DNA from: Promethearchaeota archaeon
GTDB taxonomy: Archaea > Asgardarchaeota > Lokiarchaeia > Sigyniarchaeales > SOKP01
Assembly (NCBI GenBank): GCA_048937405.1
Contig: JBHLNF010000001.1
Coordinates: 384,001-448,000 of the forward strand
Reading direction: 5' to 3'
Length of the DNA stretch: 64,000 nt
Position 1 is the stretch's first letter; each line of letters opens with the position of its first letter. The position numbers and the translations under genes are program-made. The notes beneath the pieces were generated by a model, which saw only the letters and a list, made by a program, of their open reading frames with translations, had not been told where the DNA came from and made no database searches. Positions 42,204 through 51,576 of the stretch are shown in pieces.

Positions 42204-43018
42204 TTATACCCATTCTTCTTTTAAAATATTTCCTTTTATACCTACGACAACTAATTTAATTGGAACTTTTCTACTTGCTCGTTTAGTCGCTTCTTGAGCT
42301 AAAGCTAATAGACCAGAACAACAAGGAACTTCCATAATAACAACTGTAAGTGTATTTATTTTTGCATCATCAATTAGAGTCTTTATTTTTTCTATATACA
42401 CTTCTTTGCCTTGGTCGAGTTTGGGACAAGCTATTGCGATTGACTTTTGTTTCATGAAATCTCTATGAAAATCCCCATATGAAAATCCTACACAATCTGC
42501 TGAAAGCAATACATCAGCTCCTTGGTAATAAGGTGCTCGAGGATTAATTAAATGCATTTGAACAGGCCATTGTCTTAACGCAGAAGGGATTGTTCCTGAT
42601 ATTTCTGTTTGTGTTTCTGGTCCCTCAAAAACCATTGTTTGAGCAGAAGGACAACCACAATGAGAGTTATTATCAGAAAGAATTTCCTGCATTTGTCCCA
42701 TTTTAGTTTTTTCATTTTGTTTCATAGATTCTAAATGTTTCTCAACAGCCTCCTCATCAAATTCTAAAGCTTCCCTTTCAATTATTTCAAGTGCCCCCTC
42801 AGGACAACCAGAAATGCATGCTCCAAGTCCATCACAGAAAACGTCGTTTATTACCCTCGCTTTTCCGTCGATAACTGCGAGCGCGCCTTTTATGCTATAT
42901 AAATCATTCTTTATATTACTGCACAGTCGACTACGCAATTACCACATCCAGTACATAGATCTTCATCAATCTTGATTATTTTTCTTTTTAATAATTTTTG
43001 TTGTTTTACTTCAGTCAT
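42204..43018 (-). CDS. 4Fe-4S ferredoxin-domain protein (FrdX-like), split gene: exon 1 43018..42919, exon 2 42889..42204, 261 aa when joined
   Basis: Exon 1 MTEVK...IKIDEDLCTGCGNCVVDCA joins EGALAVIDGKA...CDGLGACISGCP...QWPVQ...ACPKLD...MEVPCC; joined length 786 nt is in frame. Confidence 0.9.
42890..42918 (-). other. Predicted 29-nt BHB-type intron (UAAUAUAAAGAAUGAUUUAUAUAGCAUAA)
   Basis: GUGC/GCAU 4-bp helix, bulges AG|U and AA|A, internal AUAUAAA/UUUAUAU stem; in-frame UAA inside; excision gives GCA GAA GGC. Confidence 0.85.
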
Positions 43019-48632: not shown

Positions 48633-48888
48633 AAAACAAAAAATTGATTAGTTTATAAAATTCATTAGCTTATAAAACCAAAAATAACAAAATCTTCTTT
48701 ATTTTATGTAATATACTTACCCTTTATTTCAATTTAATAGATTTTATTCAAAATAATAGGTTAGATTATTATTTGTTTAATCTAATTGGATCAATTTATA
48801 AAATATTAAATTAATATATTTAATATATTTTCAATTTCAAACCATATAATCAAATTCTACAACTTAAAATTAAAAGGATGTGTTAAAT

Positions 48889-49058
48889 TTGGCAAAATGG
48901 GAATGTCAAGCTTGTGGATATGTTTATGATGAAGAAGCTGAAGGTACAAAATTTGAAGATTTACCAGACGATTGGACTTGTCCTGTATGTGGCGTAGTCA
49001 TGATAGGATCTCCCATTATGGCGTAAGAAAGGACATGTTCGAGAAGATTGAAGGTTAA
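48889..49058 (+). CDS. Rubredoxin, split gene: exon 1 48889..48997, exon 2 49027..49058, 46 aa when joined
   Basis: Joined product [46 protein letters not shown]; TTG start. Confidence 0.92.
48998..49026 (+). other. Predicted 29-nt BHB-type intron (UCAUGAUAGGAUCUCCCAUUAUGGCGUAA)
   Basis: GCGU/GCGU 4-bp helix (2 GC + 2 GU), bulges AG|U and AA|G, internal CAUGAU/AUUAUG stem; excision gives GTA GGA AAG. Confidence 0.85.
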
Positions 49059-49257
49059 ATAGTATAATTTATAATTAAAATAGTTTTTTTTTTAAATTTT
49101 TTAAATTCTAATATTAAATTAATAGTAATTTTGCATAAGATTTGATTTCTAAATCTATAGAAATAAATTTATTTGAGATTTATATTAAAAATCATATAAA
49201 TTAAAGATTTAATAATACTATCAGCCTAAAATTCTTTTGAAACAATTTTTTATTTAA

Positions 49258-51576
49258 TTAAGAAAAAAAATCAAACCAAGATGTGTCTAGTAACCCAGTT
49301 CTTCTACTTTTATTTAGTTTAAGTACAAAAGGTTTAATTTTAGTCAATAAAATGTGTGGTTCATATTCCCAAGCACCCTTTTTATCAAAACTAACACAAA
49401 TTATATTTCCATCTGGAATCTGTAGAAATTCTTTTAACATCAGACCATAAAGTCCTACTTGAGGTAGAGAAGTAAAAAAAGAATAATCATCTGGCTTAAA
49501 ATCTACAACATATACAACATTACATCTGAATTGAATTAAATCAATGTGTCCTAATAGAAAAACATTATTTCGAACAGATTTCCAGATGGGAACTTCAATT
49601 GCATAACTATTCTCATCTTCATTTAGAATAACAGTAAGAATTGGTTTATGTCCTGGTTTTAGAAATCCATCTGCCTGATATTTTTTATATTCTTTCTGAG
49701 CGATTTTTGAAAGGGCATAATTTTGATTATAAATATGTAGTTCACCTTTTTCTTGTAGTTCTTTAATAAAAGGATTGATTATTGGAGCTTTCAAAGGTTC
49801 TTTATTCGAACCTTGGATACTATAATCAGAAGCACGTGGATTTGATGAATCATTAAAGGCATTCAGTGGTATTATATCACCTTCCATAATATCAGTGAAA
49901 AATTTATATAAATTACAATTCAGAAGGGAATTATTAAACTTATTGATTGAATGTTGTTCATCGTTCCATTTAAATGAATATTTTACACCTTGATGATAGA
50001 AATCTTTAACTTTTAAACTTTTCAATCTTTTTAAATCATTTTTTAACTCAATTTTATGATCAGAAATATTTTTTTCAATAAAATCATCAAATTTCTTAAA
50101 AATTTTAGGTTCAGTGAATTGAGAACCTCTTTTAACAAATTTAGCTAAATTTGCAACACTATCTCCCCCATATATATCTAATTTTTTTACAAAATCTAAA
50201 GGCTTTAAATCAGAATTTTTAAAAATTTTAAGTAAAAATTTTGTATCATGAGATGGATTCTGTTCTAATAATTCTTCAAAATCATTACTAGAATAATTGT
50301 GTTTTTTGATTTTTGGAATATGTTTAATAATATAAGAATAAATAGGGCTTCTATTTGTAGTTGCTGTACTATAATCCCAATTTTCACCAATTAATTCTTT
50401 TAGACTATCCCTCGTAACACAATCTTCAAAAATTTTATTTTGTTTTATTGAAAAATATAATAATGAGATTGCAATTAATTGTGGAAAAGTATATCTATTA
50501 CTTTGTGAATCTTTTTTAACTTTAAATCCATTTTTAATAGCGATATCAAATAGTTCTAATGCTTTACTTTTGGTTTCATTTTTTATTTGTGATTTGAAAT
50601 AATTTACTCTATTAGCTTTTAAAATATAATGATCCAAAAAATCTGATACCTTATCTCTAAAAGCTAATTGATCAATATAATAGTAATTATGGAGAATATA
50701 CATATAAATTGGAGAAAAAACTTTTTCAACAAGTTGGTAATTTTCAAAATTATTTATAATACTTAGAAAATCTCCCTGTTCTAAATTATTATTATTTTGA
50801 TATCGCAAATACAAATAACAAAAAGCAGCTGAGTAATATTTAGGATCCTTTGTTTCTGGAGCAGACTTATAAAACCTCTTTATCTTTTCACTAGTGTTTA
50901 CACATTGAATGTAATTTAGTCCATTTATAAATAATTCATCTACTTGGATGAGATTTTCTTCTAAATTTAGATTTTTTTTTATATCGTTTATGTAATAAAT
51001 AATATCATCAAAATAGTTCTCATAATTAGTTAATTTATAATTAATTATTGGTCTTGAAAGATTTTTATATTTAGGTAATTCACTAAGAAGTCTTACATAA
51101 TAATTTTTTGTACGAGAGAGATTGTCCTTCTGAAGATTTAATCGCACAGCAAGTTCTTTTACTTTTAATTTTTTTCCTATAAGATCTAATCCAATAAAAA
51201 TGAGAGAACATGCAGTATATTTAACATCCTTTATGGGTAAATTATAATATAAATTGTTAAATTGTTCAGATTCATCTAATCCAGAGTTATTTCTTAAACT
51301 GTCTTGAAAAATATTGAATAATTCCTTAACAGAAAATGTAGTATCTCCTTTGTTTTTTAATTTTTCTTTGAATTCTTTTAAAGTTTGGATTAAATCAAAT
51401 TCAAACATGTTTTTTTTAGAAAAAATAGTTTTGTTAGTAGGGGAAAGATTTTCCTGCAATTCATTGATTTGAGTATTAATGAGATTATTGTCAAAACATG
51501 AACTATTTTGAGAATTCTTAAAGCGCGAAGGATTTTTTGTACAAGTATATTTTTTTTTATTGTTATCATTTGTCAT
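49258..51576 (-). CDS. Large protein with TFIIB-like cyclin repeats and C-terminal PD-(D/E)XK nuclease
   Basis: IEVPIW...GHIDL...VVDFKP...QVGLYG (RecB/Cas4-like); cyclin-like segments KYTACSLIFI...KELA, PKYYSAAFCY, PQLIAISLLYF. Confidence 0.7.
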   Translation of the reverse strand: MTNDNNKKKYTCTKNPSRFKNSQNSSCFDNNLINTQINELQENLSPTNKTIFSKKNMFEFDLIQTLKEFKEKLKNKGDTTFSVKELFNIFQDSLRNNSGLDESEQFNNLYYNLPIKDVKYTACSLIFIGLDLIGKKLKVKELAVRLNLQKDNLSRTKNYYVRLLSELPKYKNLSRPIINYKLTNYENYFDDIIYYINDIKKNLNLEENLIQVDELFINGLNYIQCVNTSEKIKRFYKSAPETKDPKYYSAAFCYLYLRYQNNNNLEQGDFLSIINNFENYQLVEKVFSPIYMYILHNYYYIDQLAFRDKVSDFLDHYILKANRVNYFKSQIKNETKSKALELFDIAIKNGFKVKKDSQSNRYTFPQLIAISLLYFSIKQNKIFEDCVTRDSLKELIGENWDYSTATTNRSPIYSYIIKHIPKIKKHNYSSNDFEELLEQNPSHDTKFLLKIFKNSDLKPLDFVKKLDIYGGDSVANLAKFVKRGSQFTEPKIFKKFDDFIEKNISDHKIELKNDLKRLKSLKVKDFYHQGVKYSFKWNDEQHSINKFNNSLLNCNLYKFFTDIMEGDIIPLNAFNDSSNPRASDYSIQGSNKEPLKAPIINPFIKELQEKGELHIYNQNYALSKIAQKEYKKYQADGFLKPGHKPILTVILNEDENSYAIEVPIWKSVRNNVFLLGHIDLIQFRCNVVYVVDFKPDDYSFFTSLPQVGLYGLMLKEFLQIPDGNIICVSFDKKGAWEYEPHILLTKIKPFVLKLNKSRRTGLLDTSWFDFFS

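Follow-up and report, generated by a model that had tools for sequence, protein, structure and literature searches.

Asgard archaea are the closest prokaryotic relatives of eukaryotes. An intron in the pre-mRNA of cbf5 was reportedly described by Watanabe in 2002, and non-canonical archaeal tRNA introns with HBh' and hBH motifs are said to have been treated by Marck and Grosjean in 2003. Archaeal introns of this type are defined by a bulge-helix-bulge (BHB) structure with a 4-bp central helix and 3-nt bulges, each cut falling after the second of the three bulge nucleotides (PMC2738675; PMC4090602), and a relaxed class of BHB is accepted for heteromeric forms of the splicing endonuclease EndA (PMC4090602; PMC5829648). 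The BHB intron of the crenarchaeal cbf5 pre-mRNA (Yokobori 2009, PMC2738675) is cut between the second and third bulge residues by heteromeric EndA and has undergone both gains and losses (PMC2738675). In Haloferax volcanii, a BHB intron in the 5′ UTR of HVO_1309 was documented by circRNA-seq and in vitro cleavage, and the 2020 paper reporting it names cbf5 as the sole other BHB intron reported in archaeal mRNA (PMC7714728). Our literature search likewise found confirmed endonuclease-type splicing inside archaeal coding sequence for cbf5 only, and it found no paper on BHB introns in Asgard protein genes. Outside the BHB systems, the small mRNA intron of eukaryotic HAC1/XBP1 is removed in the cytoplasm, by unconventional splicing with an endonuclease and a tRNA ligase (RtcB in metazoa), with a change of the C-terminal reading frame (PMC4090602).

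The window analyzed here is a 64,000-nt stretch (G000:C7:384001-448000) of the genome of a Promethearchaeota archaeon (Asgard), an assembly of 4.47 Mb in 29 contigs with ~29% GC. On its forward strand, a rubredoxin gene at 48880-49058 is split by a 29-nt insert (48998-49026) that, on comparative sequence grounds, is probably an archaeal endonuclease-type intron of the relaxed BHB (HBh') form lying within the coding sequence. Like the cbf5 intron, it is a short phase 1 intron inside a protein-coding sequence, with a relaxed BHB and a patchy distribution among relatives; unlike it, it sits in a rubredoxin gene of sediment Promethearchaeota/Asgard metagenome-assembled genomes and has a fixed length of 29 nt, and its splicing is deduced from sequence comparison. 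It shares its structural grammar and presumed enzymes with the TACK and Asgard tRNA introns that have HBh' or hBH motifs (PMC4090602; bioRxiv 10.64898/2026.10.13.758758), from which it differs in that its splicing would set a reading frame. As with HVO_1309, the predicted substrate of the archaeal splicing endonuclease is an mRNA, but the HVO_1309 intron lies in an untranslated leader, leaves the protein uninterrupted, and is handled by a homodimeric enzyme that needs a strict BHB. The resemblance to HAC1/XBP1 consists of a small mRNA intron, the use of an endonuclease plus a ligase (proposed here), and a shift of the C-terminal frame; there, however, the nuclease is IRE1 rather than a tRNA splicing endonuclease, the splice sites lie in twin stem-loops rather than a BHB, and splicing is regulated by stress. 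The rubredoxin case is well defined, in that intronless orthologues set the junction, three diverged copies covary, and a second candidate intron of like build lies in a neighboring redox gene.

Exon 1 was recognized as rubredoxin by Pfam (PF00301, 48880-48996, E 5e-13). The mechanical start of the ORF is GTG 48880, and the start codon is likely TTG 48889, with AGGA 11-12 nt upstream; exon 1 then encodes (M) plus 35 residues and the first G of a Gly codon, and all four Cys ligands of the protein are upstream of the insert. Rereading the letters gave the insert exactly as it had been quoted in the original prediction, TGT GGC GTA G / TCATGATAGGATCTCCCATTATGGCGTAA / GA AAG GAC ATG TTC. It contains an in-frame TAA (49024-49026), and the expectation that an unspliced message would lose the normal tail is borne out: the ORF 48880..49026 stops within the insert, and KDMFEKIEG* is encoded in another frame that runs to 49058. 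The insert is not an assembly artifact, because a DNA contig from a second sample (run X2), which spans 48957-49200, carries it unchanged and shows 0 differences over that interval. The predicted spliced junction, GGCGTAGGAAAGGACATGTTCGAG, would be diagnostic for this organism, since GAT ATG TTT GAA AAA is found here in intronless relatives. Coordinates of all features are collected in the table.

Table. Features of the interrupted genes, by position in the window (L075 and L076 are the intron-bearing metagenome contigs described in the text)
Feature	Position	Strand	Remarks
29-nt intron (candidate) in 4Fe-4S-domain gene, GUGC AG / U ... GCAU AA / A	42890..42918	-	exon 1 43018-42919, exon 2 42889-42204
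Rubredoxin exon 1	48889..48997	+	Pfam PF00301; orthologue N-termini MGKWEC or LAKWEC
Distal exon-exon helix, 5′ strand, UGUCCU	48979..48984	+	pairs with 49030-49035; MFE fold
Central helix H, 5′ strand, GCGU (exon)	48992..48995	+	pairs with 49021-49024; MFE fold; pair 19-49 of alignment A2 changes from C-G to U-A
5′ bulge A-G / U, predicted cut 48997/48998	48996..48998	+	unpaired in MFE fold between H and h'; cut rule from PMC2738675
29-nt intron (candidate), phase 1: U + 22-nt hairpin + GCGU + AA	48998..49026	+	missing from uninterrupted orthologues; homologous 29-nt insert in L075 and L076
Inner helix h' and loop: CAUGAU/AUUAUG (6 bp), A x C mismatch, GG/CC, loop AUCU	48999..49020	+	MFE fold
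Central helix H, 3′ strand, GCGU (intron)	49021..49024	+	MFE fold, alignment
3′ site A-A / G, predicted cut 49026/49027	49025..49027	+	in asymmetric internal loop, no closed 3-nt bulge
Rubredoxin exon 2, GA AAG GAC ATG TTC GAG AAG ATT GAA GGT TAA = (G)KDMFEKIEG*	49027..49058	+	synonymous-only differences in spliced frame
Distal exon-exon helix, 3′ strand, AGGACA	49030..49035	+	pairs with 48979-48984; MFE fold
772-aa gene downstream of rubredoxin	49258-51576	-	homologues at L075 2878-4035 and L076 15-2035

We searched all 53 other species-level genomes of the genus for the rubredoxin gene, which was present in 38, and the site could be read in 34 orthologues from 33 genomes. All 34 are uninterrupted, with the consensus TGY GGN GTN GGN AAR GAY ATG TTY GAR AAR AT., encoding CGVGKDMFEKI, and several of them read GGC GTA GGA AAA, a context identical to that of G000. 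A pattern scan of one genome per species, with G000 itself left out, detected no insert of any kind at the rubredoxin site. The only register of removal that matches the relatives is G / 29 nt / GA, which yields GTA GGA AAG and hence GVGK; the junction produced by a BHB cut equals that of all 34 orthologues read, upholding the prediction that such a cut restores GVGKDMF. Excision between the two copies of the direct repeat TGGCGTA would instead give GTA AGA and GVRK. Relatives carrying this Arg allele had been named as the finding that would favor a DNA insertion, and what they carry is Gly, as GTA GGA AAA or GTT GGG AAA, never GTA AGA. We rejected deletion between the direct repeats on this ground. 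Because the uninterrupted orthologues define them, the boundaries of the insert are set independently of any RNA structure.

The predicted BHB cuts, placed between the second and third bulge residues, coincide exactly with these orthologue-defined boundaries. The central helix is formed by the four pairs G.U, C-G, G-C, and U.G, and on the 5′ side the structure has the HBh' half, with the 3-nt bulge AGU enclosed between the central helix and the 6-bp helix CAUGAU/AUUAUG. On the 3′ side, a 5 x 7 internal loop (49025-49029 across from 48985-48991) intervenes before the exon helix, which starts only at 49030, so the strict hBHBh' arrangement is absent. Because no outer helix adjoins the 3′ bulge, the motif is classified as relaxed HBh' rather than strict hBHBh'. 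The non-canonical nature ascribed to the BHB was thus correctly recognized, as was the pairing of UGUCCU with AGGACA, which in the MFE fold takes place only past the internal loop. The fit exceeds what chance would give: when the rubredoxin 29-mer was shuffled 200,000 times with the boundaries fixed, the exact-register geometry, for which we required 4 bp in the central helix and 5 bp or more in the inner one, arose in 0.036% (3.6e-4) of the shuffles.

A search with a degenerate pattern that demanded an insert at the rubredoxin site retrieved two metagenome contigs, L075 (JABUBN010003207.1) and L076 (LAZR01022229.1). Each is syntenic with the window and has a homologous insert at that site, again exactly 29 nt long and identical to that of G000 at 25 of 29 positions in L075 and 19 of 29 in L076 (counted on the alignment), with the common core GGAUYUCCCAUUA. 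Removal of the 29 nt from each of the three genes gives ...CPVCGVGKDMFEKI(E/D). Their alignment has 94% of its cells in pairs and contains two compensatory pairs; with only 3 sequences, the covariation score is reached by 58 of 500 shuffles. A synonymous change of the exon Gly codon from GGC to GGU is compensated in the central helix by a change of G to A on the intron strand, and within the inner helix the relatives show C-G to U-A at pair 25-46 and G.U to A-U at pair 28-43. All six pairs of the distal exon-exon helix are kept in the three sequences. Pairing is poorer in L076, where the central helix contains a G-G mismatch and the inner helix two mismatches.

Across the whole gene, the three intron-bearing copies differ by 10-14 synonymous and 1-4 non-synonymous changes, and in exon 2, read in the spliced frame, by 3-5 synonymous and 0 non-synonymous changes. 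By these counts, exon 2 is under purifying selection in the spliced frame. The flanking genes have diverged (71-74% nucleotide identity for L075; 59% amino-acid identity), and because the coding changes in rubredoxin are nevertheless mainly synonymous, the interrupted gene has long been under selection. The comparison indicates that the insert is removed from the mRNA. A tree of the rubredoxin gene (123 nt) was poorly resolved; the maximum likelihood tree needs two changes, and the well-supported branches permit a single origin.

A second candidate intron of 29 nt, built as in rubredoxin, lies ~6 kb away in a gene for a 4Fe-4S-domain protein, which it splits after ...CVVDCA. Its removal gives CAEGALAVIDGKA, with G / AA (Glu) as the junction codon, and ~19 members of the genus that are without the insert read GCA GAR GGN, matching the spliced Glu. 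Six species (G000, G001, G026, G065, G063, and G029) share the insert, always with a length of 29 nt. In the G029 copy, 12 of the 22 interior bases differ while the length and the ends are the same, and six of the seven stem pairs hold, two of them through compensatory changes. The alignment of all six sequences, a small sample, has 98.9% of cells paired and two compensatory pairs. This motif has the outer helix too, making it a nearly canonical BHB, and its geometry was reached in 0.018% of shuffles. In another genome, G022, an additional copy of the 4Fe-4S gene (L063, G022:C211:3150-3600) reads TGT GCT TGG TGC TCT TGA after the fourth Cys and looks truncated or frameshifted.

We scanned the whole of G000 for further mRNA introns by structure and ORF content, requiring strict 3-4-3 geometry and long flanking ORFs and filtering the hits by coding potential, strength of the helices, and length of the intron. 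Among the 26 candidates left after filtering, only the 4Fe-4S intron was convincing, and the others that were inspected resembled gene junctions or chance matches. The scan does not show the absence of further introns, because it required strict 3-4-3 geometry and long flanking ORFs; within that scope, mRNA introns are not a widespread habit in this genome, a point that counts against the intron interpretation. A third 29-nt match, on contig C28, was rejected since it lies in one continuous ORF. An ORF of ~19,000 codons was encountered on the plus strand of contig C13 near 91,190 and is presumably a giant gene.

G000 encodes two EndA paralogues of ~200 aa each, both with the N- and C-terminal Pfam domains; they lie in the regions of C8:5162-5410 and C27:74089-74313. 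One of the two aligns best to the catalytic subunit of the Aeropyrum pernix heterotetramer, retains the catalytic His and Lys, and keeps the Lys of the Crenarchaea-specific loop, aligned to A. pernix K44; the other aligns best to the Methanocaldococcus jannaschii enzyme and has Ser at the position of the catalytic His. The pair fits the (alpha-beta)2 type, as judged from these alignments, and Asgard EndA has been reported as an (alpha-beta)2 enzyme with an L1 loop that cuts relaxed motifs (PMC5829648). The original prediction had called for a broad-specificity endonuclease and for the EndA subunit type to be established, and the combination of a catalytic and a His-less paralogue suggests that the genome encodes the heteromeric type. 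An RtcB ligase is also encoded (E 1.8e-169). ARAGORN reported only 21 tRNA genes in this genome, which is rated 100% complete, most of them with odd intron calls, and many tRNA genes are probably interrupted in ways beyond ARAGORN's reach. This agrees with a preprint that describes Asgard tRNA genes as heavily interrupted (bioRxiv 10.64898/2026.10.13.758758); a term search of that preprint returned no mention of mRNA.

In the mechanism that we propose, the last GCGU of exon 1 would pair in the pre-mRNA with the GCGU near the 3′ end of the intron to form the 4-bp central helix, and the intron's own hairpin would supply the inner helix. The 5′ site would thereby be presented as a closed 3-nt bulge (A-G / U), and the 3′ site (A-A / G) would lie in the internal loop that is closed farther out by UGUCCU/AGGACA. 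A heteromeric (alpha-beta)2 EndA would cut after the second residue at both sites, and at the 3′ site, which is not closed, cutting would depend on an enzyme of relaxed specificity. RtcB would then ligate the exons to give GTA G / GA AAG, restoring the normal rubredoxin C terminus, and the 29-nt intron would be released, probably as a circle. At ~70 nt, the rubredoxin region offers a short, defined substrate for Asgard EndA acting on mRNA. Splicing of this kind would mean that, in these lineages, the heavy burden of tRNA introns extends to mRNAs and that gene callers will miss or truncate genes split in this way.

It is unlikely that the 29 nt are instead a disruptive DNA insertion, arisen by slippage or as a mini-element that duplicated TGGCGTA at its target, and that the gene is now a pseudogene or encodes a rubredoxin whose tail is aberrant. 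In G000, most of the insert is indeed flanked by the 7-nt direct repeat TGGCGTA, no other genus genome whose gene we read carries the insert, and a protein truncated there would have its four Cys ligands upstream. The repeat, however, is mostly a by-product of the self-complementary GCGU of the central helix and decays to 6 of 7 positions in L075 and 3 of 7 in L076, and removal from repeat to repeat leads to the GVRK found in no relative. A second copy of either 29-mer was sought in the 4.47-Mb genome, and neither a copy nor a near-copy of the rubredoxin insert was found; four near-matches to its 22-nt core, with 3 mismatches, occur in genomes of the genus, all within ordinary ORFs. We accordingly rejected a MITE or insertion element with target-site duplication, given the decay of the repeat and the single copy in the genome. 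An insertion also accounts poorly for a length of exactly 29 nt in three diverged lineages, for the compensatory changes, and for synonymous-only differences in exon 2.

Translational recoding would leave the RNA uncut, with ribosomes hopping from GTA 48994-48996 to GTA 49023-49025 to make CGV-RKDMF. Ribosomal bypassing has its model in phage T4 gene 60, and in G000 and L075 the codons for take-off and landing do match (GGC GTA ... GTA), lie 29 nt apart, and enclose a hairpin. L076, however, has no matching landing codon, yet its gap is also 29 nt and its exon 2 is intact, a hop from GCA to GCA in the 4Fe-4S gene would land on TAA, and the product would again be GVRK against the GVGK of every uninterrupted relative read; we rejected bypassing of the T4 gene 60 type for these reasons and regard recoding as highly improbable. 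Excision from the RNA by an agent other than EndA, or only conditionally, such that the truncated unspliced form is the default product, is quite improbable in our judgment. It would suit the 3′ site, which is not a canonical bulge, the degenerate copy in L076, and a hairpin core, GGAUYUCC, that is conserved beyond what pairing alone requires. Against it, in two unrelated genes the boundaries fall exactly where the EndA rule places them, and we know of no other RNA-cutting system that uses BHB-type geometry like that of the rubredoxin insert.

The intron that we favor at the rubredoxin site has a recurrent neighbor, a gene encoding a 772-aa protein. This gene is found beside rubredoxin in 3 of 3 intron-bearing loci and in 0 of 19 intronless loci with enough flanking sequence. 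Close orthologues are lacking in the rest of the genus, where full-length homologues at other loci are only 30-33% identical; the C-terminal ~245 aa of its product are similar to a protein that occurs by itself in most of the genus genomes searched. The protein matched Pfam only below threshold, to PD-(D/E)XK (E 0.098). The intron allele and the 772-aa gene might form one mobile unit, with the protein acting as a free-standing homing endonuclease that cuts intronless alleles; the intron would then break the recognition site and protect its carrier, which would explain the patchy spread among intronless relatives. Co-occurrence is the sole evidence for such a link, and we consider it improbable: shared descent of one locus variant explains the co-occurrence equally well and is the simplest reading. 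The L076 counterpart of the 772-aa gene has a single change of frame, at ~1109-1136, and the DNA matched falls 1 nt short of the coding length of the query protein; this is a frameshift or an assembly error, not an intron.
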